A DNA stretch of 64,000 nucleotides from Candidatus Bathyarchaeia archaeon (GTDB taxonomy: Archaea > Thermoproteota > Bathyarchaeia > 40CM-2-53-6). Position numbers and translations under genes: made by a program. The stretch covers positions 416,001 through 480,000 of the forward strand of contig JBEKVV010000003.1 in assembly GCA_049513715.1 (NCBI GenBank). Reading direction: 5' to 3'. Positions within the stretch are counted from its first letter, which is position 1; each line of letters starts with the position of its first letter. The notes under the pieces were generated by a model. It was not told the origin of the DNA, searched no databases, and saw only the letters and a program-made list of their open reading frames with translations. Of the stretch, positions 1,446 to 16,691 are shown in pieces.

Positions 1446-1727
1446 CTAAGGCAGCAGCAGACTTGAGAATAGCAGAATCGCAAGACCTAGCGATGCTGCA
1501 AGCATCCAAGCCTTGCTCAGGATTTCTCCCCATCTCTCTGTCATGAATAAGTAAACAATCATTGCGAATGACAAAAGGTCGACAGCCAGGAAGATTGCGA
1601 ATCTAGTTTCACTTACGCTGCTGGTTGCGTCGAGCGTCCATAGAAAAAGCGCGGAGGCTGCTTGAAGCAGGAGCAGCAATGTGACAATCAGCCTATTCCG
1701 ATCCATTTTGGACTCCTCCAAATTCAA
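1446..1727 (-). CDS. Small 3-TM membrane protein, last gene of the Rieske/cytochrome b operon
   Basis: Hydrophobic ORF overlapping the cytochrome b stop. Confidence 0.7.
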   Translation of the reverse strand: MNLEESKMDRNRLIVTLLLLLQAASALFLWTLDATSSVSETRFAIFLAVDLLSFAMIVYLFMTERWGEILSKAWMLAASLGLAILLFSSLLLP

Positions 1728-3171
1728 AGAGAGGAATTCGTCTCTTGACTGAACCGATTCTCAATTCTAGTCTGTATAGAAAGATGAATGTGCCAAGGAA
1801 TACTGCTCCTAACAATGTCGCCGATAAACAGAGAGATGCGAGCGCCTCAAAATTGACTCCGCCAATAACTAATTGAGCTGAATTTCCGAAGAATGCGCTG
1901 ATTGAAACTGAACCTAGAGCAAGTAATCCGACTAGCATGGGCCCCGCCCATACGACAGTTATCGCTTGCGTGGAAGCCTTGTTCGTCGGTAGATGTCCCT
2001 TGATTTGCGAGTTTATGAGTTTGCTCAGGCCTAAAGAGATGAGCGCGATCAGTAATGCAGATCCCCCTAGCACTGTGGCAGCAACTTCTGTAGGGATGAC
2101 TTGGCCTGGTGTGATCAAGCCCCAATATGCAAGCACGAAGACTTCGCCAACAAATATTAGGCCAAGTGCTACAAAGAGAGGGCGGTTTCGGATTTTCCTC
2201 GTTTCGCCTCGGTCAATTACGGGTAGGAGGAATAGCAGTAGGAAGATTATGGTGACAACACTCATCGCGACCGGAAGGCCCGCACCTTCGAACACTGAAA
2301 TCTTCAGCAGCTGATAAATCCACAGAAAGTACCAGTCAGGTTGCGGAATAAACTGGGACGCAAGTTCCGGCGTATATTGTGGGGGTAGATTGAGTGGGAA
2401 GACCACTGAGATGAGAAGCATTATGGCGCCGAAGATCGCTGCCAGCTCTAACAGGTAGAGTGAAACATCAGGGAATATTGGAATTGTTCGACGGGGTTTT
2501 GTTTCGCCGAGGGCTGTTACTGGCTCTGAGATGCCGTGCGTTTCTAGCATGTACATTTTGACGGTCAAGAGAACTAACAGTACTGCAGGTAGGATGACCA
2601 CGTGTAAATCGTAGAAGCGTAGGAGTTGGGTAGCATCACCGCCAGCCCCAATTATTAGAAAACTTAGGAGTGATGAGAGCGGTGCTGGCAAGGCGTCTAT
2701 CATTCCTACGCCTACGTCGGTTGCTGACTTTGAAACCACCGTCCAAGGCAGCAAGTATCCAGTAAAACCAAAGCCCAATGTGACGAAGCCCATCACCATG
2801 CCCACAAACCACATAATCTCTCTAGGTTTCTTGTGGACTGAGACGAAGTACCCGCGCATCATGTGCATGAATGCGAGCATTATCATCGCATATGCTGTGT
2901 ATAGGTGGACGCTTTCCAAGAACCTTCCATAGAAAACGGATTGAAAGATGTATTGAGTTGACGGAAACGCTTCCATTGGGTTGGGAATGTAGTAGAGCAT
3001 CATTATCATCCCCGTGACGCCTTGAATGACGAAAGCGACTACAGTTAGGGCGCCGAGCCAGTAGAGGGGGTTGATGGCGTAACGAGGAACTGGCCTTAGC
3101 AAGGGGTGCGAGAGGCCCAGTCGAGTGTCAATCCATCTGAGCAACCTAGTGGGCTCGCTTTGTTCTTTCAC
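1693..3171 (-). CDS. Cytochrome b of a Rieske/cytb complex (SoxN/QcrB-like)
   Basis: Helix-B His pair (VHLY..MHMMRG), GFTGYLLPW, RFYDLHV, Qo-site PDWY. Confidence 0.92.
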   Translation of the reverse strand: MKEQSEPTRLLRWIDTRLGLSHPLLRPVPRYAINPLYWLGALTVVAFVIQGVTGMIMMLYYIPNPMEAFPSTQYIFQSVFYGRFLESVHLYTAYAMIMLAFMHMMRGYFVSVHKKPREIMWFVGMVMGFVTLGFGFTGYLLPWTVVSKSATDVGVGMIDALPAPLSSLLSFLIIGAGGDATQLLRFYDLHVVILPAVLLVLLTVKMYMLETHGISEPVTALGETKPRRTIPIFPDVSLYLLELAAIFGAIMLLISVVFPLNLPPQYTPELASQFIPQPDWYFLWIYQLLKISVFEGAGLPVAMSVVTIIFLLLFLLPVIDRGETRKIRNRPLFVALGLIFVGEVFVLAYWGLITPGQVIPTEVAATVLGGSALLIALISLGLSKLINSQIKGHLPTNKASTQAITVVWAGPMLVGLLALGSVSISAFFGNSAQLVIGGVNFEALASLCLSATLLGAVFLGTFIFLYRLELRIGSVKRRIPLFEFGGVQNGSE

Positions 3172-3177
3172 AGTTGT

Positions 3178-3819
3178 CTAACTCACAATGTTTCCGCCTT
3201 GAAGGTCCGAGGTGACATCGTTCGACCCGGTGTTGTGCCCGAAAATTGCTGGAGGCGTCATGCCAACCGCAAAGATTTCCCCAGAGTCGCTCAGTTGCAA
3301 TATGACTTGAGGTTGGGGCCGAGGGGAGGGCCCGGAGCGTACGCTAGCGCGGTGCAGAAAATCGAAGACGCTTCCATGGCAACAACAGTAACCCAACGGG
3401 GTGTCGGCTTTGAAGGCTGAATTGCATTGTGGACTGGTTCCGGTGGGTTGGAAGGAGTACACGCAGCCTAGGTGCTGGCACAAGACACTAAAGGCCACGA
3501 TATCTCCATCGGGCCCAACTCCACCTTCCGCCTTCTGCCCTAGCTTCACCAAGATGTTTGGCTCGTTGTCGAGCGGATAGTTGAAGACGACATGTTCATT
3601 CACCTTCAAGTCTCCCATTGACGCGACTTTCACTTTGGGAAATGTCGCTGGTCCGGTTCTGGCTGGGGGGGCCGAATTAGTAATGGCTTTTGTGATGGCC
3701 GCGATTCCACCGATAAGCAGAAGCCCCGATAAAGTGACTGCGAGCTTTAGAAAATTCCGTTTCCTCTCGTTCGGCCGCTTTTCCCTTGGATTGTCACTGG
3801 TGGCTTTCTTCGGGGGCAT
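3178..3819 (-). CDS. Rieske 2Fe-2S protein (SoxL/AioB-like) with Tat-type anchor
   Basis: CQHLGC and CCCHGS boxes; RKRNFLK followed by a TM helix. Confidence 0.92.
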   Translation of the reverse strand: MPPKKATSDNPREKRPNERKRNFLKLAVTLSGLLLIGGIAAITKAITNSAPPARTGPATFPKVKVASMGDLKVNEHVVFNYPLDNEPNILVKLGQKAEGGVGPDGDIVAFSVLCQHLGCVYSFQPTGTSPQCNSAFKADTPLGYCCCHGSVFDFLHRASVRSGPSPRPQPQVILQLSDSGEIFAVGMTPPAIFGHNTGSNDVTSDLQGGNIVS

Positions 3820-3823
3820 TGAA

Positions 3824-4975
3824 TCACCGTTTGGCTTTTGGCCTGGTAATTATCGCTCCAATAACCAATCCTACGATCAGAAGGCCGAAGCCAACCACAC
3901 CCGCTAAGGTAGCGCTAATGCCCGTTGGGGTCGACTGCGCAATTGTGACCGGAGCAGTTGGTGGCATTTGGTCGCTGATCGTTAGATCATACCACTGCGA
4001 CACTGACTTCACGTGCGCTGATTCCCCTAGTTTCCCGTTCCAAACCGCGAAAGCCACATAATAGTTAGAGCCAGTCTTCAGTTGCACTCTGTATTGAGAT
4101 GCGTCGGATACGGTGAAACTTCTAACCATCTCAACGGTCCATGTTTGATTGTTTTCTGAGAAATAGTTGCCTACGTGTATTACGAATGGGTCCGCGTAGG
4201 GGTCCAAGTTTGGGGAATCAGCCCCGAAGCTTCCACCTGTCACAAAGAAGCCGGTCGTGTTCGTGTAATCGCTTTCTGCATATGAGACATTGTTAGGAGG
4301 ATAGAGGGTGGTCCCGGCTGGGTCGGTGTAACCTCCTGGGAAGTCTGGGTCGCGCTGGTCGTTGTCGGTTGGAACTGACTGCCAATGCCAGATGTCGGCT
4401 GCTCCTCCGGTTATGGCGCCGTTCGTTGCTAACTCCATTACAGGTGACTGCTGCCTCTTCGAGGTGTCACCTAGGAACCAGAGCATTGCCACGCGGTCTT
4501 GGTAGTAGTATGTTGAGTTGTAGAACAACTGGTTTGCGGTTGCTGTACTCTCGTCGGTTAGGGGCAGTAGGGTTCCATTGGGTGCAGTGTAAAGCTCACC
4601 TTCCGAGCCGAAGGACGGCCCAACCTTATCATCCCAACGAAACAGCGCGTAAACATTGAACCCGTCATTAGCAGATTTCACAAGAACGTTCTGCGTGCGA
4701 CCTCCTCCTGGCGAAACGGAGGCAGCCAACGGGACGCTTGTCCACTCGATCGCGTTCCAGAATGATTCGTTTCCAGGCGCGTTGTAGTCGGGAGCTCCGT
4801 TCACTCGGTGAGACGTAATCTTCGGGAATGACCCTTGAGCAAACGCTCCCTGCATCGCAACGTTTGGCAGCGCTCCTGCCCAAACAATCATGATAAGAAA
4901 GACGAAGAGAACACGAGGACTTATCCTATTTAGAATCGTTGAAATCTCCTTTGAATTACGCGTTGAAGAATTCAT
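3824..4975 (-). CDS. DOMON/EB_dh-like heme-b protein (CbsA-like), with signal peptide and C-terminal anchor
   Basis: VYALFRWDD, QDRVAMLW, ADIWHW, WTVEMVR, YYVAFAVWNG..ES..KSVS. Confidence 0.8.
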   Translation of the reverse strand: MNSSTRNSKEISTILNRISPRVLFVFLIMIVWAGALPNVAMQGAFAQGSFPKITSHRVNGAPDYNAPGNESFWNAIEWTSVPLAASVSPGGGRTQNVLVKSANDGFNVYALFRWDDKVGPSFGSEGELYTAPNGTLLPLTDESTATANQLFYNSTYYYQDRVAMLWFLGDTSKRQQSPVMELATNGAITGGAADIWHWQSVPTDNDQRDPDFPGGYTDPAGTTLYPPNNVSYAESDYTNTTGFFVTGGSFGADSPNLDPYADPFVIHVGNYFSENNQTWTVEMVRSFTVSDASQYRVQLKTGSNYYVAFAVWNGKLGESAHVKSVSQWYDLTISDQMPPTAPVTIAQSTPTGISATLAGVVGFGLLIVGLVIGAIITRPKAKR

Positions 4976-5835: not shown

Positions 5836-5988
5836 GCCGGGGTAGCCTAGCTAGGTAAGGCGACAGAGCCCCGAGAACCGTAGACGTGTGATCGGGACGT
5901 TGAACCTCGAGATCACCGCGCTAGAAATGGGCCAAGACAGCTGTTGGTCCTCTGGGCCTCGTGGGTTCAAATCCCACCCCCGGCGCCA
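5836..5988 (+). tRNA. tRNA-Ser(CGA) with two introns (5867-5904 at 30/31; 5912-5938 at 37/38), encoded CCA
   Basis: Acceptor GCCGGGG/CCCCGGC, D-arm GCCT..AGGC, spliced anticodon arm ACAGC-CTCGAGA-GCTGT, long variable arm, T-arm GTGGG-TTCAAAT-CCCAC, discriminator G. Confidence 0.88.
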
Positions 5989-6103
5989 ATTTACCGGTCG
6001 TTTTGTGTATGTGGGTCTAATGGTGCGCACCACCACAACTGACACAGAATTTCCCATTGAATGGCTTCACTTTGCGTGGCAATTGCAATTGCCAGGGGGC
6101 TTC

Positions 6104-6532
6104 TCAAGTTGTCGTTTGGGTCTGTTTCGGTTTCCACGTCACCGCTAGTATGCCTCCTACGAGGCCTAAGACTAAGCCCACGCCTAGCCCGCCCATAGCG
6201 CCGCCGAATATGCTAAGCGCTGAGAAGACTATGATCAACATGCCCCATGTTGAATGTTCCTGGGGCTTGCTGTTCAGCATCACTGCACTGATGATTACTA
6301 TGACCCCGAAGACTATTCCCAGGATCCCCAATAGCCCGAAACCCAGCCATCCCATCATTCCATAACTAGGAACGCTGTAGCCCATCATACCGCCCCAGCC
6401 GCGGTAGCCGCCCATCATTCCCCCAAACCAAAATGCGCCCATCATGGATGTCATTCCTCCGCCAAGGAGGATGAATAAGCCACCAATCAGTGAAAGTAGG
6501 TAAGCAGCCGTAGGCTTCTCTGTTAGTGTCAT
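6104..6532 (-). CDS. Membrane protein with Met/Gly-rich loop
   Basis: About 4 TM segments; GGMMGGYRGWGGMMGY..GMMG. Confidence 0.85.
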   Translation of the reverse strand: MTLTEKPTAAYLLSLIGGLFILLGGGMTSMMGAFWFGGMMGGYRGWGGMMGYSVPSYGMMGWLGFGLLGILGIVFGVIVIISAVMLNSKPQEHSTWGMLIIVFSALSIFGGAMGGLGVGLVLGLVGGILAVTWKPKQTQTTT

Positions 6533-6724
6533 CTTCTAGATTTCAACTCCATGTGCTTAGTTTGATTCGACTTCCTGTAGGAACACTGCTCACTGATAGT
6601 CACCCCAATCTCTTTAACATGTAACTAATGATTGTGGCCCATCAATTTCGTTCTGCGGAATCATGTATCCCAACACGCCGTTGCCAACCGACAAACCAAA
6701 CCACTCCCATTAAGCTGTGAGTTC

Positions 6725-6753
6725 ACACTGAAACACAGTGTGTTTCACCGTGT
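6725..6753. promoter_or_regulatory. Palindromic putative operator between divergent island genes
   Basis: TGAAACAC-AGT-GTGTTTCA (6729-6747), extendable with ACAC/GTGT. Confidence 0.5.
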
Positions 6754-6817
6754 ACACCCATCTTAAGTGCGCTTCTTGAGTGGCATCACCAGACTCGAAC
6801 CGTTGATGTGAATATGC

Positions 6818-7567
6818 ATGGTTGACTGCGGGCGTTGCCACCGGAAATTCGACTCGTACTCTGGCCTACTCCAACACTATAAGGTAAAACATCCAAACGC
6901 GACGAACCTTAAGGACCTAGAAAGACAAGTCAGGACCGAGCAAGATACACGAGAACTAGTTTCAGCGAGTCTGCATTCGCATGGGCCCTCAAGAGCGAAG
7001 TTGATCGCATTCTCACTAATCGTGCTTATCGCGGTCAGCGTCACAGCTTACGTTGCGTTCGCACCAAAGGAAGTATTCACAACGACAGTCAGCGCGAAAG
7101 GGGTCGCTCCAGACTTCTCCTTACCGGATGTTAACGGCGGAACATTCACCCTTTCTGACTACAGGGGAAAGTCGAACGTCCTCTTGTTCTTCAACGAGGG
7201 TCTAAGTTGCGCTCCTTGCCTGCAGCAGATGCAGGGGTTGGACCAGCTTAATGCGGAATTTGGCAGAATGAATGTCGTGGTTGTTGATGTAACCGCTGAC
7301 CCTCTGCAGTTGCTGACGGATTGGACTAGGTCAAGTGGGCCCCAGTATGCCAAGGTTCTTTCCGACCAAAACCTCGCCGTTAGCAAAATGTACGGAATGC
7401 TGGGCCCAGACGTGAGCATGATGCCGTACTCCAAGCCTGGACACACGTTCGTTCTGGTAAACACATCGGGTGTCATAGTCTGGAGACAAGACTACGGGCC
7501 TAGCAACATGTTCGTTCCAAACAACCAAATCGTTGCCCTTGTCTCGAAGGCGCTCGGAGCCAGCTGA
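6818..7567 (+). CDS. C2H2 zinc finger + TM + AhpC/TSA-like redoxin domain
   Basis: CGRC..HYKVKH; APDFSLPDVNG, CAPCLQQM. Confidence 0.85.
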   Translation: MVDCGRCHRKFDSYSGLLQHYKVKHPNATNLKDLERQVRTEQDTRELVSASLHSHGPSRAKLIAFSLIVLIAVSVTAYVAFAPKEVFTTTVSAKGVAPDFSLPDVNGGTFTLSDYRGKSNVLLFFNEGLSCAPCLQQMQGLDQLNAEFGRMNVVVVDVTADPLQLLTDWTRSSGPQYAKVLSDQNLAVSKMYGMLGPDVSMMPYSKPGHTFVLVNTSGVIVWRQDYGPSNMFVPNNQIVALVSKALGAS

Positions 7568-7570
7568 GTA

Positions 7571-7837
7571 GTGTCAAAAGTCATTTTGCTGAGTAGCGTG
7601 GGTTGCACGCCCTGCCTGCGTGTTAAGCGGTACCTTAACGAGTTCCACGCGAAGAACCCTCAGATCGAAGTCGAGGAAATTGAATTTTCTTCTCAAGTTG
7701 GATCAAAACTTGCAGTGGAAAATGGAGTCCTTTACCCGCCCGCGGTCTTCCTTGAAGGCAAACTGATTGCCAAAGGAAAGATACACGCAGAGACGTTGAT
7801 CACGACCATCCAAGAGGCCGAAATGGTGAATGTTTGA
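7571..7837 (+). CDS. Thioredoxin/glutaredoxin-like protein
   Basis: CTPC, GVLYPPAVF. Confidence 0.8.
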   Translation: MSKVILLSSVGCTPCLRVKRYLNEFHAKNPQIEVEEIEFSSQVGSKLAVENGVLYPPAVFLEGKLIAKGKIHAETLITTIQEAEMVNV

Positions 7838-8718
7838 TGTCACTGCTTCTTCTCGCATACCTGATAATTGCATTTGTTGCAGGCGTGATTGCGCTTGCAA
7901 TGCCATGCTGCTTTAGCGTACTTCTCCCATCGTACTTCGCCCAGAGCTTTAGGCAGAAAACGCGGCTAATCGGAATGACTGTCATTTTCTCCTTAGGCAT
8001 CGCCACGATAATGCTTCCGCTCACCCTAGGCGTGGTAGCAGTTGCAGGAACGGTTACTTCGAATCACAGCTTGGTCTTCGTGGCCGGAGGGTTCCTGATG
8101 ATTGTGTTCGGGTTTCTCACTCTATGGGGGCAGGGTATGCTGCCGCAATTGAATTTGCCCGTCAGCCTGAAACGCACCGACGCATTTTCAGTTTACACCC
8201 TCGGAATCTTCTCAGGAGCAGCGACCTCGTGCTGCGCCCCTGTTCTAGCTGGAGTCCTCGTATTGTCCGCTTTATCAGCTGGAACCTTTGAGGGATTGCT
8301 AATTGGGTTCACGTACGTACTTGGGATGGTCTTTCCACTCTTCGCAATCGCCCTCGCATGGGACAGATATGTGCCTAACGGAGAAAATCCGTTGAAGGGG
8401 CGACTTCTACACTTCAATACATTCGGCCGCGAAGTTGCGATACACTCATCAAAGCTCATTTCCGGCCTGATGTTCGTCTTGATGGGAATCGTCACCGTTG
8501 CATTGGGCCTACTGGGGAGAATGATTCCGGCACCCGGCGCTGCGCAAATAGGGGCCATGCAGGCCCAGCTCGCGTATGTTCTGACGGCTTACTTCGTGAA
8601 TTCCTCTGGACTAGAGTTAGTTGGAGTTCTTGGTGTGGCGATAGTCATCATTGGCGTCTTCGCTCTGAAAAATCACATCAGAAAACTACTGGAACCCGCT
8701 AGAATCGAGGGGGACTAA
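7834..8718 (+). CDS. ccdA: CcdA/DsbD-family transmembrane thiol-disulfide transporter
   Basis: AFVAG..MPCC..LLPSY and SCCAPVLAGVL. Confidence 0.8.
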   Translation: MMSLLLLAYLIIAFVAGVIALAMPCCFSVLLPSYFAQSFRQKTRLIGMTVIFSLGIATIMLPLTLGVVAVAGTVTSNHSLVFVAGGFLMIVFGFLTLWGQGMLPQLNLPVSLKRTDAFSVYTLGIFSGAATSCCAPVLAGVLVLSALSAGTFEGLLIGFTYVLGMVFPLFAIALAWDRYVPNGENPLKGRLLHFNTFGREVAIHSSKLISGLMFVLMGIVTVALGLLGRMIPAPGAAQIGAMQAQLAYVLTAYFVNSSGLELVGVLGVAIVIIGVFALKNHIRKLLEPARIEGD

Positions 8719-8722
8719 AGCA

Positions 8723-8956
8723 TTGAAATCAACCCCAGTGACAGAACAAAGACCGATTGGGCGGGCAGTCTTATCACTATCCAATTGTGAAGGCGACGCA
8801 CCAGTTCAAATACTTCAGCGTACGCTGAAGAAGACACCTGGCATAAGGCATGTAGATCTCAATTATGCTGCTAACACAATAACTGTCGACTATGATCTAA
8901 CCAAAATCACATTCGAAGAGGTAAGGGCAGTCATCAAACAGCCCCTTCTAGCTTGA
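8723..8956 (+). CDS. HMA-fold small protein lacking the full CxxC
   Basis: LKKTPGIRHVDLNYAANTITVDYD pattern; single Cys. Confidence 0.7.
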   Translation: MKSTPVTEQRPIGRAVLSLSNCEGDAPVQILQRTLKKTPGIRHVDLNYAANTITVDYDLTKITFEEVRAVIKQPLLA

Positions 8957-8983
8957 GTCTTTCGAAACGCGGGAGGAAGTAGA

Positions 8984-11065
8984 ATGGCCAAGGACCCGAT
9001 TTGTGGCATGTTTGTGGATGAGAAGACCGCGACCATAACCCGCACGATTCGGGGAACAAAATGGTACTTCTGCAGCGAAACCTGCGCCATGACATTCGAG
9101 AAACCAGAGGTCGAAATCAGACGTCTCAAGCTCTTGGTGATAATTGGCATCGCGCTCACAGTACCAACAGGTTTGTTCACATACGTTATGCTTCTTCCAT
9201 CCAACATCAACAATTATCTGCTCTTCATTTTGGAAACGCCAATACAGTTCATCGTGGGCTGGCGCTTCTACAGGGGCGCATACGACGCTCTAAGAAACCG
9301 AATGGGTAACATGGATCTTCTAATTGCCATTGGTACTACTGCCGCTTGGGCATACAGTACAGTAGTCACTTTTCTTCCGTCAGTCTTCCCCACGAGCGGA
9401 GCATACTTCGATACAGCTGCAGTGATCATCACCCTGGTCCTACTCGGGAACATGTTGGAGCATATCAGTAAGGGAAGAGCTTCCGAGGCAGTTCGCAAAC
9501 TCCTAGATCTACAGCCCAGGATGGCACACGTGATCCGCAATGGGGCTGAAGAGGAAGTTCCAGTAGAGTCGGTCAAAGTAGGCGATATTCTAGTTATCCG
9601 CCCCGGGGAAAGGATACCGGTTGACGGAGTGGTGACTGAAGGCAACTCTGCTGTTGACCAATCCGCCATCACCGGAGAAAGTATCCCCGTTGAAAAAACT
9701 GCTGGCGATGAAGTAATCGGAGCAACAATCAACACATTCGGTCTTCTCAACGTTCGAGCATCGAAGGTCGGAGCAGATACAGTACTATCAAAGATCGTTC
9801 AACTCGTCGAAGAAGCCCAGATGGCGCATGCGCCGATTCAACGCCTCGCCGACCAGGTTTCAACATACTTCGTGCCTGCAGTTATCGTAATCGCCACAGG
9901 GTCGGCGCTAGGTTGGTATTTCTTCGGTGGATTGGCGCTCAACTTTGCTTTATTGGCGTTTGTCTCAGTAATCGTCATCGCATGCCCGTGTGCACTTGGC
10001 ATCGCTACTCCAGCCGCAATTCTTGTCGGAACAGCCAAAGGCGCTCAGAATGGGATTCTCATCAAAGGCGGTGAGTATCTAGAGACAACCCATAAGATAC
10101 GGACAATTGTCTTTGACAAGACCGGCACTCTGACCAAAGGCAAACCGTCGGTAACAGATGTCATAGTCAGTGGAAAGCACACGGAACAAGAAGTACTTCA
10201 GCTGGCCGCCTCAGCCGAGAAAGGCTCAGAACATCCTCTCGGCCGAGCAGTCGTAGAAGCTGCTAAGAAAAAGGGCATAAGCATACCTGACGCGACCTCA
10301 TTCAAAGCCGTACCAGGCGCGGGCGTAGTAGCAGAGCACAATGGGAGAACCGTATTGCTGGGAAACCGAAAGCTGATGGCAAAATATGACATGAACCTCG
10401 CGCCAGTCGAAGCCGACATATCTGCGCTTGAGGAAGAGGGTAAAACGGTCATGGTTCTATCCGACGGCAAGGAACTCCTCGGTGTCATCGGCCTCGCAGA
10501 CACCCTCAAAGATGACGCTTCAGACACAGTCCGAGAATTGCAGCGAATGAAGATTGAAGTCGTAATGTTGACAGGCGACAACATCCGAACGGCCAAAACC
10601 GTTGCTAGCAAATTGGGCATAGACAGGGTTGTGGCAGACGTTCTGCCAGAGCAGAAGGAGAAGATTATCAGAGACTTGCAAAAGGAAGGTAAGGTTGTGG
10701 GCATGGTTGGAGACGGAATCAACGATGCGCCAGCTCTTGCAGCGTCCGACATTGGAATTGCCATCGGAAGCGGAACAGATGTCGCGGTCGAAACAGGCGG
10801 CATTGTTCTGATCAGGAACAACCTACGAGATGTGGTGATCGCCATCAAACTCAGTAAGGCAACTGTCAGCAAGATCAAGCAGAACCTGTTCTGGGCATTC
10901 TGCTACAACGTTGCACTCATCCCCATCGCTGCAGGTGCACTCGTGCCATTCCTCGGACCTGGTGTGTACAATTTCCTTCCATTCCTAGCTGCCGGAGCGA
11001 TGGCTTCAAGTTCAGTTACTGTCGTAAGCAACTCCCTTCTGCTGAACCGGTTCAAACCACGGTGA
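8984..11065 (+). CDS. copA: Cu+-translocating P1B-ATPase with N-terminal YHS/TRASH domain
   Basis: KDPICGM..YFCS..C, TGES, CPC, DKTGT, SEHP, GDGIND, YN, MASSS. Confidence 0.95.
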
Positions 11066-11086
11066 AGATCTGGAGGTGAGATCGAA

Positions 11087-11230
11087 TTGGTTAAGGATCC
11101 AATTTGCGGAATGAAGGTTGACGAGAAGAAAGCGGCGGGTTCAAGCTCGTATTCAAGCAAAACCTACTACTTCTGCTCGCCATTCTGCAAGAACGAGTTC
11201 GACAAGAACCCAGCGAAATATGCCACCTAA
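11087..11230 (+). CDS. YHS/TRASH metallochaperone (CopM-like), 47 aa, absent from ORF track
   Basis: TTG start after GGAGGTGA; MVKDPICGMKVDEKKAAGSSSYSSKTYYFCSPFCKNEFDKNPAKYAT. Confidence 0.9.
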   Translation: MVKDPICGMKVDEKKAAGSSSYSSKTYYFCSPFCKNEFDKNPAKYAT

Positions 11231-11305
11231 AGTTCATTCAGGCATCCCTCACATTGAGGGGGGAATGATGGATGTCTACGGGCAAGCGTCAACGAGTGAG
11301 ATATT

Positions 11306-11334
11306 GGTGGGTTCAAATCCCACCGTCCCCACGA
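11306..11334 (+). repeat. Foreign tRNA 3'-end remnant
   Basis: GGTGGG-TTCAAAT-CCCAC-CGTCCCC-ACGA; no recognisable D or anticodon arm. Confidence 0.7.
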
Positions 11335-11358
11335 AGTTGGTTATACGTACCGGTAAAT

Positions 11359-11387
11359 TGGGGTCAAATTCCCACCCCCGGCGCCAA
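11359..11387 (+). repeat. Duplicated tRNA-Ser 3' end (attR/TSD-like)
   Basis: TGGGGTCAAATTCCCACCCCCGGCGCCAA. Confidence 0.85.
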
Positions 11388-12055: not shown

Positions 12056-12144
12056 CCTGCACCTAACCATGGGATGGGAAACAGCCCTCTCGACTAAGCG
12101 TAGAAGAACACCGTCAGCCCGAAAAAAACGGCACAAGAGCTTCC

Positions 12145-12201
12145 GCGGGTTCAAATCCAGCCCGCGACGCCAAAATCCCCCGCGAATTCCACCCCGGCTC
12201 A
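12145..12201 (+). repeat. Stacked degenerate tRNA 3'-end remnants
   Basis: GCGGG-TTCAAAT-CCAGC-CCGCGAC-GCCA, then AATTCCACCCCGGC (eroded tRNA-Ser end). Confidence 0.6.
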
Positions 12202-13472: not shown

Positions 13473-14306
13473 ATGGTAACCACCATCTCAGGCCAGAAAA
13501 CGCAGGCAAATTCCCCGATGGTCTCATTGAGTTTACTCTGGCCATTGCGAATCTTCATGGGTTTGACCTTTCTATATGCGGGAGTGCAGCATCTAACTGA
13601 CCCGTCTTACTTCGACCCGTCGAAATCAGGCTATATTGGGCATTTGATTGCACAATATGCCGTCGGATCCCCAATTCACGACTTCCTTCTAGGAGTAGTT
13701 GGACCGAATGCTGTCCTTTTCGGGTACGGAGTCGCTGTTGGCGAGTCGTTGATTGGCATCGCCACTCTGCTAGGATTCCTTTTCAGGATTGCAGCATCAG
13801 CCGGGTTACTACTCAACTTAACTTTCTTCTTATCCGCAACCTGGACTGCTTTCCCGTTCTATTTCGGTTCGGACATAGTATTTGTCATGTGCTGGTTGAC
13901 CATCCTCTTGACAGGCCCTCAGCTGAAGCAAAGCGTAGACGCAGTCTTGGCGAGACGCTACCGTTTCTTGAGTTGGTTGGTATCCCAGCCCCAGACGAAT
14001 CCAAGAATGAACCTCATAACGCCCGCAATAACGCCAGTTCAAACCCAAACGAGTCAAGTTCAGGTAGCAGTTCCTGATGGAGCCAAGCTATATCCCGGCC
14101 AAGTTCGCGAAGTGAACCGAGCGTTCGAGCGCATTAAACAGCAGTTTGTTCTTCACCGCGAAACTCAAACGATACTCGAGTTTGTGCGGGCTTTTGTGAT
14201 TAGTCTGGGCGTCGACCGAAACGACGCGTCACAAATTCTCAGCGGACTGCAGAACATCATCAACAGGCACTCAACGGAAGGGGCATACACCAAACAGGGG
14301 ACATGA
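13473..14306 (+). CDS. DoxD/DoxX family (TQO small subunit-like) membrane protein with C-terminal extension
   Basis: LRIFMGLTFLYAG, GESLIGIATLLG..RIAA, PFYFGSD, SVD. Confidence 0.85.
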   Translation: MVTTISGQKTQANSPMVSLSLLWPLRIFMGLTFLYAGVQHLTDPSYFDPSKSGYIGHLIAQYAVGSPIHDFLLGVVGPNAVLFGYGVAVGESLIGIATLLGFLFRIAASAGLLLNLTFFLSATWTAFPFYFGSDIVFVMCWLTILLTGPQLKQSVDAVLARRYRFLSWLVSQPQTNPRMNLITPAITPVQTQTSQVQVAVPDGAKLYPGQVREVNRAFERIKQQFVLHRETQTILEFVRAFVISLGVDRNDASQILSGLQNIINRHSTEGAYTKQGT

Positions 14307-14307
14307 C

Positions 14308-15015
14308 ATGGCAAACACTACAGAAACTGAACAAATCACTGACAAGATTGCGACGGCCTATGGATTGCAAGTCTCAAGGGATGTCGTAGCTTCAGTCTTT
14401 GCGGGGCGCCCTAAACTTCCTGTACTGCTCTCCCGTGCTTCTTTCCGACCTGATCTTGATGTCCGAACGAAGCAAAGAACGCGAGTCCAAAAGGAACGTA
14501 GGAATTTCCTCCGTAGCATCTTCGGATTCGTTCTGCTTTCCGCATCAGCACTAGTCCTACTGAAGATAGCAACAGTCTCAAGCACACAACCTGAAACATC
14601 CACTACTGTGCCCAGCAATCCCAGTAATCCAAGTAACCCTAGCACTCAGCCTCAAACGCCCACTACTTTACCCGGCAACCCAAGTAATCCTAGCACTCAG
14701 ACCCGACCAATTATAGCCAACGCGGCGAATATTGCACCAGACCAGTCGATAACCTACAATGACCCGTCTCTAGGTCCGATTATTCTGATCCATTTAGATA
14801 ACGGGCAGTTTGTTGCTTACAGTTCAATCTGCACTCACGCAGGTTGCCAAGTCCAATTCGACCCATCCGGGAAAGAGATGATATGCCCTTGCCATGGCGC
14901 AACATTCGACCCATACAACAATGCGCAAGTCACAGGTGGACCAGCCCCCTACCCACTACAAAAAATCCCTATACAATACAACTCCTCAACAGGCAACATC
15001 TACCTGACCGGATGA
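14308..15015 (+). CDS. Rieske 2Fe-2S protein with internal Tat motif and P/S/N/T linker
   Basis: ERRNFL + TM; CTHAGC and CPCHG. Confidence 0.92.
   Translation: MANTTETEQITDKIATAYGLQVSRDVVASVFAGRPKLPVLLSRASFRPDLDVRTKQRTRVQKERRNFLRSIFGFVLLSASALVLLKIATVSSTQPETSTTVPSNPSNPSNPSTQPQTPTTLPGNPSNPSTQTRPIIANAANIAPDQSITYNDPSLGPIILIHLDNGQFVAYSSICTHAGCQVQFDPSGKEMICPCHGATFDPYNNAQVTGGPAPYPLQKIPIQYNSSTGNIYLTG
14600..14700 (+). repeat. Intragenic (PSN)n tandem repeats within a duplicated linker unit
   Basis: CCACTACT..CCTAGCACTCAG occurs twice, each with 9-bp units. Confidence 0.75.
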
Positions 15016-15148
15016 GCAAAAGTCATTCACTCCGTTACGTTCTTCCCGGCCAATCAGATCCACAACACTCGTGATCTCCTTCTTGCTTTGGGCTTCGTCC
15101 AATCGCGAGTACAACTTACCTTCCAGGTACCACTGGCTGGTTTTGCAC

Positions 15149-15196
15149 TATGAGAACTGAGTTCTAAGACAACAGACTTCCTCGGGTCCTTTTATC
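15149..15196 (+). promoter_or_regulatory. Operator AGAACTGAGTTCT + TATA-like CTTTTATC
   Basis: Perfect 13-bp dyad; same spacing as 13393-13440. Confidence 0.7.
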
Positions 15197-15231
15197 AAAA
15201 CAGAACCAATCGTAATTTCGGTGATAACTGA

Positions 15232-15483
15232 ATGAGAAACACTTTGCCCGTTGTCCTAGCGGTGCTCCTAGCCTTGTCAGGAATCTTGGCAGCCGGGGGA
15301 ATAGCCATAATGAAAACGTACACAACTCCCACTACACCAATCCCCACTAGCACTCCAACAACAATTCCAACGACATCCTTCCATAATTTAGCCTCACAAC
15401 AACCAAGTCCCCTGAAACTCACACAACAACCCCCCACGAACCAAACCTGCTCAGGCGACGACTGCTCGCAGAGCGACAATTAA
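15232..15483 (+). CDS. Small membrane-anchored P/T-rich protein with C-terminal Cys pair
   Basis: N-terminal hydrophobic helix, TPT repeats, CSGDDC; follows the conserved promoter. Confidence 0.65.
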   Translation: MRNTLPVVLAVLLALSGILAAGGIAIMKTYTTPTTPIPTSTPTTIPTTSFHNLASQQPSPLKLTQQPPTNQTCSGDDCSQSDN

Positions 15484-15494
15484 GACTGAACAAA

Positions 15495-16691
15495 GTGGGA
15501 TCATTGCATACGAGGATTTGGCTTGCCCTAGCAGTGCTCGCTGGCGTTGCAAGCCTCTCCACTCTTCTTGTCTTACAAACCACACCAACTAATCCAATAT
15601 GGTCAGACTACGCACGGCTGCTCGGATGGGGAGGTCTGGCATCAGCAGCCGTACTCGTCGTTCAAGGGTTTTGGAAAGCCTCTCGAGACAAACAGTACAT
15701 GACTCAACTCCGAAATCAAACATCGCTACATCAACAAGACATTGTAAACAAGTATACTGAATCCCGTGTGCATGGATGGAGAGTGATGCACATCATCCTC
15801 TCAATCCTAGTGACAACACTAGCAGGACTTCATGGAATCCTCCTCCTTCCCAGACTTGCGTCTCCAACCATTGGCGTGACCTTCGGTTTAATCGGTCTAA
15901 TCGCACTTCTAGCTCTCGGCTTATCTGGAGCCGTCACCGAAGCGAATCGGAAGACGAAAACCTTCGGATCATTGAAGAAAACACATCTTTGGCTCATGGT
16001 CGGGGCACTGACATTAGCTGAACTTCACGCAGTCGCGGCCGGTTCAACGATATTCAGCCTCGGCTCAACCATCGCACTAGGTTTGTTGGTAGGTACAATC
16101 GGAATGATCGGCATAGGAGTTGAATATGCCTCCGTCAAAGCCGCACGACATTACTTCAAGACTGTACCGCAACCCATACCGAGCGATGGATGCAGCGTCA
16201 ATCTGGGACGGAGAGCGGCACTACAGAAGTTTGGCACACTGGCCGTAGGAACGCTCGTAGCCATCAGTTTCGCCGAAGCCGCCGCGCTCATGCCGAATGT
16301 CCTCTCGTCGCCGCAGAATCAACAGGCACAACAAAGCCTTGTTGTCGCTTCAATCACGCCCATTCAAACGAATCAGCAAGCCACAGGGAACAAGTTGGGA
16401 AATCTTTCGAACATACCGGTTAACAGCGCGTTCTACTTCAACTACCCTGCAGGTGTTTCCAATATCTTAATTCGGTCAAGTGACGGCAGTCTAGCTGCAT
16501 ATTCCTCAACATGCACGCATCAACCCTGCACAGTCGGATATGACGCTGGAACTGGGTTGATTAGATGCCCATGCCACGGTGCCTTATTTGATCCAAAACA
16601 AGGGGCAAGGGTTCTGCAGGGTCCCGCGCCTGCGCCACTCTCTTCAATTCAGCTTACCGTTGACAGTAATGGAGACATATGGTTAGCATAG
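15495..16691 (+). CDS. Polytopic di-heme-b-like membrane domain fused to a Rieske domain
   Basis: His pairs MH..LH and TH..LH in TM helices, internal GRRAAL, CTHQPC and CPCHG. Confidence 0.85.
   Translation: MGSLHTRIWLALAVLAGVASLSTLLVLQTTPTNPIWSDYARLLGWGGLASAAVLVVQGFWKASRDKQYMTQLRNQTSLHQQDIVNKYTESRVHGWRVMHIILSILVTTLAGLHGILLLPRLASPTIGVTFGLIGLIALLALGLSGAVTEANRKTKTFGSLKKTHLWLMVGALTLAELHAVAAGSTIFSLGSTIALGLLVGTIGMIGIGVEYASVKAARHYFKTVPQPIPSDGCSVNLGRRAALQKFGTLAVGTLVAISFAEAAALMPNVLSSPQNQQAQQSLVVASITPIQTNQQATGNKLGNLSNIPVNSAFYFNYPAGVSNILIRSSDGSLAAYSSTCTHQPCTVGYDAGTGLIRCPCHGALFDPKQGARVLQGPAPAPLSSIQLTVDSNGDIWLA

Follow-up and report, generated by a model that had tools for sequence, protein, structure and literature searches.

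The 5.4-kb block behind the tRNA-Ser(CGA) gene in the window (the whole 64,000-nucleotide stretch of a Bathyarchaeia contig analyzed here) is very probably an integrase-less island, lying between the left and right docking sites of an archaeal tRNA-end family and likely inserted by the tyrosine integrase of that family. About 48 instances of the docking sites were found in the genome of this peat archaeon, and such sites also flank an integrase gene elsewhere; therefore, the block is likely a cargo-only island and not a casposon, the signature of which had been raised in the initial annotation. The two sites, their family, the linkage of that family to an integrase, and a series of filled and empty tRNA-Ser loci were observed, and the steps of a mechanism were inferred from them. 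The features are listed in Table 1.

Table 1. Features of the tRNA-Ser(CGA) locus and of the island, in window coordinates
Feature	Position	Strand	Remarks
tRNA-Ser(CGA) gene, integration target	5836..5988	+	Introns 5867-5904 and 5912-5938; Rfam tRNA match, alignment with 14 orthologues, ARAGORN on spliced form
attL, 22-bp att core, T-loop to discriminator base	5964..5985	+	Likely crossover region about 5971-5978, from tRNA/right-site comparison
Left arm, made up of tRNA CCA and the inner portion of a palindromic operator	5986..5998	+	
Motif C copy (separate dispersed repeat)	6005..6027	+	65 genome copies; motif also follows tRNA-Val gene
DUF6114/DUF4064 membrane protein	6104..6532	-	
AhpC/TSA redoxin, N-terminal extension	6818..7567	+	
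Thioredoxin/glutaredoxin-like protein	7571..7837	+	
CcdA/DsbD-like membrane thiol-redox protein	7837..8718	+	Mosaic, 3' part recently exchanged
HMA/CopZ-like metallochaperone	8723..8956	+	
CopA, copper-translocating P-type ATPase, N-terminal YHS domain	8984..11065	+	Above TIGR01511 cut-off
YHS-domain protein	11087..11230	+	
Motif B, second tRNA 3'-end fragment	11306..11331	+	9 bp before right arm
Right arm, 21 bp	11341..11361	+	Contains 13-bp inverted copy 11349-11361; 20/21 identical to genome consensus
attR core	11362..11387	+	First 8 bases element-type, then displaced tRNA-Ser 3' end and CCAA

The tRNA gene was missed by ARAGORN at default settings in the window and miscalled as Pro in intron mode, and was called as Ser(cga) after in silico removal of the introns. 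The duplication of its 3' end, initially annotated as bracketing 5.4 kb, was confirmed as a perfect 18-bp direct repeat (5972-5989 and 11370-11387); among 300 random sequences of 7.5 kb, only one contained a perfect direct repeat of this length. The intact tRNA and the displaced 3' fragment have the same orientation, as in islands formed by tyrosine integrases. The 13-bp inverted arms were likewise real and perfect (5986-5998 and 11349-11361). A 13-bp inverted repeat was common anywhere in random 7.5-kb sequence (161/300), while both arms fell within fixed 73-bp windows in 1 of 20,000 random sequences. That the arms abut the duplication did not hold on the right, where the arm is set off from the perfect repeat by 8 element-type bases and overlaps nothing but the imperfect 28-bp copy. 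The inverted symmetry of the ends is largely that of a palindromic operator.

Comparison of the tRNA with the right site in 10 left/right pairs gave identical spacer positions 9 to 17 in every pair, with positions 1 to 7 differing from the tRNA in most. The onset of tRNA identity at position 8 or 9 suggests that crossover likely occurs between the arms. The island itself is atypical at both ends. At position 8 its right core carries a T, where the other 9 of the 10 pairs match their tRNA, and its left arm is one base shorter than usual, the next base being C, which was unique among 47 distinct left sites (40 have A and 6 have T). Upstream of CCA, the two copies strictly share a block of 14 bp. 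Just inside the island ends are two additional tRNA-end-like scars, motifs C and B; the pairing of motif B with a right arm recurs at C5:206520 and C1:892312.

The copper-export cargo consists of seven open reading frames, and its CopA is the sole close CopA in the genome. The CcdA/DsbD-like protein had no Pfam match; its tentative name reflects a weak TsoB match and the presence of paired Cys-Cys motifs. As initially annotated, no recombinase or polymerase is present: profile searches gave no match to a tyrosine recombinase, resolvase, Cas1, or PolB within the island, which is filled by the listed reading frames, and a search for remnants of an integrase or partner gene found none there. No anomaly of G+C content or skew was detected, with about 50% G+C inside and outside.

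The arm is not specific to the island, as 42 copies with at most one mismatch were found in this genome (G000). The longer docking site gave 48 genome matches, mostly co-oriented in arrays with a median site spacing of 1.7 kb, and most carry a non-tRNA tail. Fourteen co-oriented sites extend over 56 kb behind an integrase gene on contig C5, an array separate from the window island; some arrays are distant from the enzyme. Within this array, which is anchored on tRNA-Leu, a Ser-tailed site (C5:210869) lies at a distance of about 8 kb from the integrase; hence, both tail types co-occur in one array. Left sites without an integrase were common, accounting for 22 of 28 informative loci against 6 autonomous ones, a ratio of about 4 to 1. 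The proposal that excision would yield a circle with the tRNA end flanked by both arms was borne out by two-armed junctions of this form in relatives G366 and G351, indicating that such a circle junction is what the family forms. A left-right fusion with zero cargo was found in G230.

The suggested search for the arm next to tRNA ends and integrases elsewhere was productive. At C5:220117 the same left arm follows tRNA-Leu and precedes two intact genes, one for a partner protein and one for a tyrosine recombinase of 319 aa. This integrase is the only copy in the genome and is on a different contig from the window island. Homologues were found at 21 loci in 19 of 401 genomes of the class, of which 18 lie about 580 to 620 bp behind a tRNA end plus arm (15 Leu-type and 3 Ser-type), two were unreadable, and one had no such site. 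In autonomous members, the integrase module begins 30 to 90 bp behind the left arm. A scan of named genomes with the integrase as query returned one locus only, in a Hadesarchaea MAG, with the same order of tRNA-Leu, arm, partner, and integrase. Residues R160, H263-x-x-R266, and Y298 were conserved in 119 to 120 of 120 homologues. The best family was the archaeal XerA-like NF040815 (181.6 against a cut-off of 220), and an IntI-type integrase was ruled out by a score of 42.5 bits against the TIGR02249 cut-off of 265. Counting against insertion by this family are an RGD in place of the second catalytic His of XerA-type enzymes and the location of the resident integrase at a Leu-type end, the window island being at a Ser-type end. 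No description of this integrase family was found in the literature searched.

The 174-aa partner protein had no sequence match above cut-off in Pfam, NCBIfam, PHROG, or PDB and no Foldseek match at E≤0.001. Weak hints of an N-terminal ribbon-helix-helix were obtained (17 of 89 members matched the CcdA antitoxin family; no Atlas match). On the basis of a predicted winged helix, the protein probably binds the palindromic arms.

Of 19 orthologous tRNA-Ser(CGA) loci, 17 had no arm, contrary to the refuting case named in the initial annotation, and the flank after attR agreed at 12 of 14 bases with the empty site of G014. G003 carries at this locus a 28.7-kb element that includes the integrase and its partner gene and ends in a closing site, its two arms being altered together in the palindromic center; G008 carries a different, 3.1-kb integrase-less element. 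Beyond the closing sites of both lies the sequence found immediately after the empty tRNA in G002 and G009. A single tRNA locus across one genus thus presents the full series of autonomous, cargo-only, and empty states. The expectation of an empty tRNA-Ser followed by the parvulin gene failed: parvulin was matched in 17 of 40 relatives and lay directly behind tRNA-Ser in none, being 3.6 kb upstream in G017. Copper genes are not constant at the locus, as none was found behind the orthologous tRNA-Ser in the 17 relatives from the genus that were followed further.

The copper genes of relatives sit at other loci, and none was found between family arms (9 loci in 8 genomes). Four-fold-site identity between the cargo and G014 was 0.85 to 0.94 in the right half and 0.23 to 0.42 in the left, a pattern that points to a mosaic in which the right half of the operon was exchanged recently. 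Gene order across the mosaic border is that of the resident copper operon of G014, G018, and G021. Recent movement of the copA allele has involved at least three lineages, whose core divergence is saturated; copper export is therefore a traded trait in these peat archaea.

Present mobility was examined in the contigs of 8 of 24 listed metagenome runs, which drop rare forms and may all represent the source population; in these, no empty-site joint, circle joint, or empty site in the same species was found, and depth inside the island equaled that outside. A single joint that spans the island, from 6027 to 11348 with 27 other bases between, looks like a junction of motif C and an arm from another copy. 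Together with the atypical bases at both ends, the missing empty site and circle suggest that the window copy is fixed. Of the initial proposal of a non-autonomous cargo element mobilized in trans, the cargo without a mobility gene stands, and mobility in trans at present is rather unlikely.

In the preferred mechanism, a circle would carry a single site composed of the right arm, a 22-bp core containing the tRNA-Ser 3' end, and the left arm. The integrase, probably with its partner on the arms, would exchange strands in the last T-loop base and the 3' T-stem strand, midway between the arms, which would restore the tRNA and leave its former 3' end beyond the insertion. The integrase module would then have been lost, or may never have been carried. 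Part of the copper operon would recently have been acquired or replaced from another lineage, and the copy, now seemingly fixed, would be the host's sole source of a close CopA. An origin by decay of an autonomous element is consistent with the shortened left arm and the autonomous relative at the same locus, but no gene remnant was found.

A sub-case of this reading, which comes nearest to the initial annotation and in which the resident integrase still excises and reinserts the island in trans, is rather unlikely. The intact integrase and partner genes, the near-consensus right arm, and the Ser-tailed site near the integrase would fit it; the metagenome contigs, the unusual left arm, and the T at position 8 do not. 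It is also improbable that the 5.4 kb was never one mobile unit and that the copper genes entered an old, nearly empty left-right shell stepwise, through other recombination systems and homologous exchange. Such a shell is known in G230, the scars of motifs C and B lie just inside the arms, and the cargo is mosaic; however, the two motifs do not form a matched pair around the cargo, and the conserved gene order across the mosaic border fits one block with a later patch.

A non-autonomous casposon, or another transposon with terminal inverted repeats and a duplicated tRNA target, is very improbable. In the passages on family 2 casposons in PMC4779613, insertion occurs at tRNA 3' ends (tRNA-Leu/Pro) with inverted repeats near 14-bp target duplications, to which the 14-bp shared block of the island is comparable, and Cas1 matches were present in 3 of 5 relatives tested. 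However, these lie on other contigs or more than 150 kb from the elements, and Cas1 (PF01867) had no match in G000, which is 99.4% complete (control positive in 7 of 14 genomes). The repeats of a casposon would abut the target duplication at both ends, but the geometry here is asymmetric, with non-target bases at the right arm, a symmetry ascribed largely to the operator, and arms linked to a tyrosine integrase at 18 of 21 loci. PolB gave four genome matches, none in the island, and the control for protein-primed PolB was silent. A serine resolvase was ruled out as the mover, there being no PF00239 match in the genome.

The island is therefore likely a cargo-only, CIME-like tRNA island. As described for CIMEs and tandem accretion of the ICESt1/ICESt3 type in the relevant passages of PMC5704250, it has no integration or transfer genes, retains attL and attR at the 3' end of a tRNA gene, and shares its target with related autonomous elements. 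Unlike CIMEs, it is archaeal and alone at its tRNA, with no tandem partner element there in G000 and no conjugation genes known for the helper, and its docking site has 48 genome copies, most of them with a non-tRNA tail. The intact tRNA, displaced 3' fragment, and T-arm crossover resemble the Islander 'J' subsite class at the T-loop/T-acceptor junction, as far as outlined in PMC4383910, but here short symmetric arms hug the core and one integrase family serves both Leu- and Ser-type ends. The Islander integrase filter would reject the island because it contains no integrase. Dehalococcoides ssrA islands, as presented in parts of PMC3146451, similarly have the module next to attL in some cases, module-less islands at the same target, and cargo younger than the module; they use a serine recombinase in a six-gene module at tmRNA, whereas a two-gene tyrosine module at tRNAs is found here. 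Integrons and CALINs, including archaeal ones (sections of PMC9668308), share a tyrosine recombinase heading an array of small cassettes in one orientation, along with other arrays distant from it. Such an array is present behind the integrase on C5 and not at the window island, and in contrast to integrons, the enzyme scores far below the integron-integrase cut-off, the sites are tRNA-derived and probably not attC-like, and the array is anchored on a tRNA.

The CIME/accretion principle is already known. The apparent hybrid of casposon and integrase features resolves into one system, in which the inverted repeats are the arms of a tyrosine-integrase attachment site. Integrase-dependent island finders reject such islands, although they were commoner than autonomous elements in this sample (22 versus 6). 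As a tentative extension, Bathyarchaeia may possess an integron analogue built from tRNA ends, in which a two-gene module of partner and RGD-type integrase behind a tRNA actively reshuffles cassettes that lack an enzyme, dozens in number, and brings cargo such as the copper operon to tRNA genes of the Leu, Ser, and other types, the target being set by the 14-bp tRNA tail of the cargo and not by the enzyme. If so, the archaeal integrase would be retargetable, and the system would be a main channel of accessory gene flow in peat archaea.

The island, a 5.4-kb copper-gene block behind tRNA-Ser(CGA), is bracketed by direct and inverted repeats as described in the initial annotation, and both were confirmed at the positions tabulated below. 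The window is G000:C3:416001-480000; homologue names, and the habitats of the runs in which the genome occurs, are consistent with a peat Bathyarchaeia. A direct repeat of this kind arose by chance in 1 of 300 random sequences. An inverted repeat of 13 bp was common when allowed anywhere in 7.5 kb (161/300 random sequences) and rare at the actual arm positions (1/20,000). The cargo consists of a DUF6114 membrane protein, a redoxin, a thioredoxin-like protein, a CcdA-like membrane protein, an HMA chaperone, CopA, and a YHS protein. The reported absence of a recombinase or polymerase was also borne out, with no recombinase, Cas1, or PolB found inside the island, and its base composition was unremarkable relative to the surroundings. 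Rieske, cytochrome b, DoxD, and heme-binding (EB_dh) genes lie on both sides, and the source genome (G000) carries at least four cytochrome b-like loci. A T-arm-like sequence in the window is single copy in the genome, with raised read depth in its bin; the 57-aa gene ahead of it has an 84% paralogue at C3:94874.

Positions of the island features and their surroundings in the window
Feature	Positions	Basis
tRNA-Ser(CGA), two introns	5836-5988	Alignment with 14 orthologues; ARAGORN on the spliced form
Perfect 18-bp direct repeat	5972-5989 and 11370-11387	
13-bp inverted arms	5986-5998 and 11349-11361	
Motif C	6005-6027	
Motif B (tRNA 3' fragment)	11306-11331	
T-arm-like sequence	12144-12173	
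Rieske, cytochrome b, DoxD, and heme-binding (EB_dh) genes	1693-4975 and 13473-16691	

The arm is a docking site and not a private terminal repeat of the island. The 13-mer occurs 42 times at ≤1 mismatch in the 2.79-Mb source genome, and a profile search found 48 docking sites at ≥17 bits. Each combines a 21-bp arm with a T-loop-like 7-mer and a tail, which in 29 of the 48 is a conserved non-tRNA sequence and otherwise the end of a tRNA-Leu or tRNA-Ser. Much of the inverted symmetry of the arms arises because the arm center is palindromic. The sites form arrays in which they share one orientation, and the median distance between neighbors is 1,724 bp (33 pairs <25 kb apart), and the pattern was present in 23 of 41 related genomes, with zero matches for a reversed control. 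One array of 14 co-oriented sites (G000:C5:160030-220141; L001-L003, L019) is headed by tRNA-Leu, a partner gene, and an integrase. Further pieces at the ends of contigs C1, C2, C3, C4, C6, and C7 and on C9-C11 could be parts of a single large array or of a few.

Besides that of the window, one left-type arm in the source genome lies behind this tRNA-Leu, at C5:220117, and is followed directly by the 174-aa partner gene and then the 319-aa tyrosine recombinase. Among 1,232 homologues of the integrase, the top 120 were compared: residues R160, H263, R266, and Y298 were conserved in 119 to 120 of them, and an invariant RGD occupies the position of the second His of XerA-type enzymes. The integrase scored under the XerA cut-offs and far under the integron-integrase cut-off. 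Structure prediction (pLDDT 80) gives the partner a helical N-terminal part, a long helix, and a winged helix at the C terminus, with a middling best structural match (Z 8.7, rmsd 2.5, 63 aligned); from this model we infer that it may bind the arms. Among 401 genomes of the class, 21 integrase loci were found in 19 genomes. In 18 of these the integrase lies ∼580 to 620 bp behind a tRNA end and arm, with the partner in between; typed on 3' sequence, 15 of the ends are Leu type and 3 Ser type. The other three comprise one at a contig break, one masked, and one without such a site. A Hadesarchaea metagenome-assembled genome has the same layout. The left-site pattern was found at 60 places in 48 of the 401 genomes (control, zero), and of 30 read as loci, 22 lacked partner and integrase, 6 had either, and 2 were incomplete.

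The orthologous tRNA-Ser was obtained from 19 of 22 relatives in the genus, and the arm was absent at 17 of the 19 loci; the initial annotation had asked whether island-less relatives retain it. Nor are copper genes constant at this locus, as none were found behind the tRNA in 17 relatives (∼2 to 18 kb read). The predicted empty site followed by the parvulin gene was not found, with parvulin directly behind the tRNA in none of the 17. In G003, the tRNA is followed by arm, partner, and integrase, with the closing site 28.7 kb away and both arms changed together, and G008 has a 3.1-kb element that lacks an integrase and carries unrelated cargo. In G002 and G009, the empty tRNA is followed directly by the sequence present after both closing sites. 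The flank after the right site of the window matches 12 of 14 bases of the G014 empty site, a match weak on its own because this flank also resembles that of the source genome's tRNA-Ser(GCT). Six orthologous alleles (L032, L034, L035, L037, L039, and L040) have a third intron, which interrupts the T-arm at the inferred crossover region; a full left arm was present in 0 of these 6 and in 3 of 14 without it (G000 included), too few to test intron protection.

Ten tRNA/right-site pairs from nine genomes were used to map the crossover (G351 gave no pair). In the 22-bp spacer, identity was complete at positions 9 to 17, 9/10 at position 8, and 2 to 10 of 10 at positions 1 to 7; therefore, exchange starts at about the last T-loop base. 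This would be the left edge, the only edge visible in the pairs, of a 6- to 8-bp overlap centered between the arms, and it fits the Islander J class (PMC4383910). Two-armed junctions resembling the excised circle that had been proposed, with the tRNA end between the arms, were seen in G366 and G351, and in G230 the left and right sites are fused with zero cargo.

The island is most probably a cargo-only member of a two-gene tyrosine-integrase family targeting Leu- and Ser-type tRNA ends. The original view of a cargo element without a mobility gene thus stood, and its casposon signature did not: the island fails the casposon tests (PMC4779613), and Cas1 in three relatives lies away from the elements. 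The island works like other tyrosine-integrase tRNA islands and fits the definition of a CIME, which retains att sites and lacks mobility genes (PMC5704250). Module-less islands also stand beside module-bearing ones at Dehalococcoides ssrA (PMC3146451). That the island is still excisable appears unlikely, and it is probably now fixed. In metagenome contigs from 8 of 24 listed runs, depth inside equaled that outside, and neither an empty-site joint nor a circle joint was found, although rare forms drop out of contigs and every run may represent the source population. The left arm is one base short (of 47 left sites, 1 has a C there) and leads into a copy of motif C, and the right core differs from the tRNA at position 8. 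These features are read as signs of decay; no integrase remnant that would prove deletion was found in the island.

For the copper cargo, the CcdA-like gene had matches in 11 of 40 relatives. Nine copper-gene loci from eight genomes were read (G024, G034, and G040 left out), and none had family sites around the genes. The gene order of the island is conserved in G014, G018, and G021 at a different locus. The genes flanking the G014/G018 cluster are neighbors in the source genome (C1:750467-750611), so that the orthologous site is empty there. At four-fold-degenerate positions, copA is 0.83 to 0.86 identical to G013, G014, and G018, against 0.25 to 0.36 for five core genes, and the left half of the cargo is near saturation. 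The right 2.8 kb was thus recently exchanged, in either direction. The sister genomes G021 (L120) and G018 (L122) have a core four-fold identity of 0.93 and a copA identity of 0.28 at the same locus, a sign of allele replacement that counts against a simple story.

Two dispersed tRNA-end-like repeats lie just inside the island ends. Motif C (65 copies in the source genome) matches tRNA-Val(CAC) at C3:86147 over its 3' end and trailer. It has a tRNA-like and a palindromic form, often stands in inverted pairs 60 to 90 bp apart, and could represent either another att family or a repeat of the MITE/REP kind. Motif B looks Pro-like; it recurs at C3:166053, C2:373500, and ∼10 more places in the genome, precedes the right arm by ∼10 bp at three or more sites, and in one copy is upstream of a 480-aa integrase-like frame (C3:166805).

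No description of the two-gene family was found in the literature covered, which included few subscription papers. For archaea, tandem reuse of sites (PMC6563490) and both T-arm targets and helper proteins (PMC8371274) are already known. On the passage of circles between cells, a preprint deals with oriT-only islands (10.64898/2026.01.13.699239). The same left arm was also observed behind Val-like and a further type of tRNA end in G105, G092, G131, G371, and G144, and therefore the target range of the family may be wider. Compared with integrons (PMC9668308), the array in the source genome is alike in layout but unlike in enzyme and site; it is possible, if doubtful, that the family represents an active analogue of integrons, built on tRNA ends, whose specificity can be retargeted.
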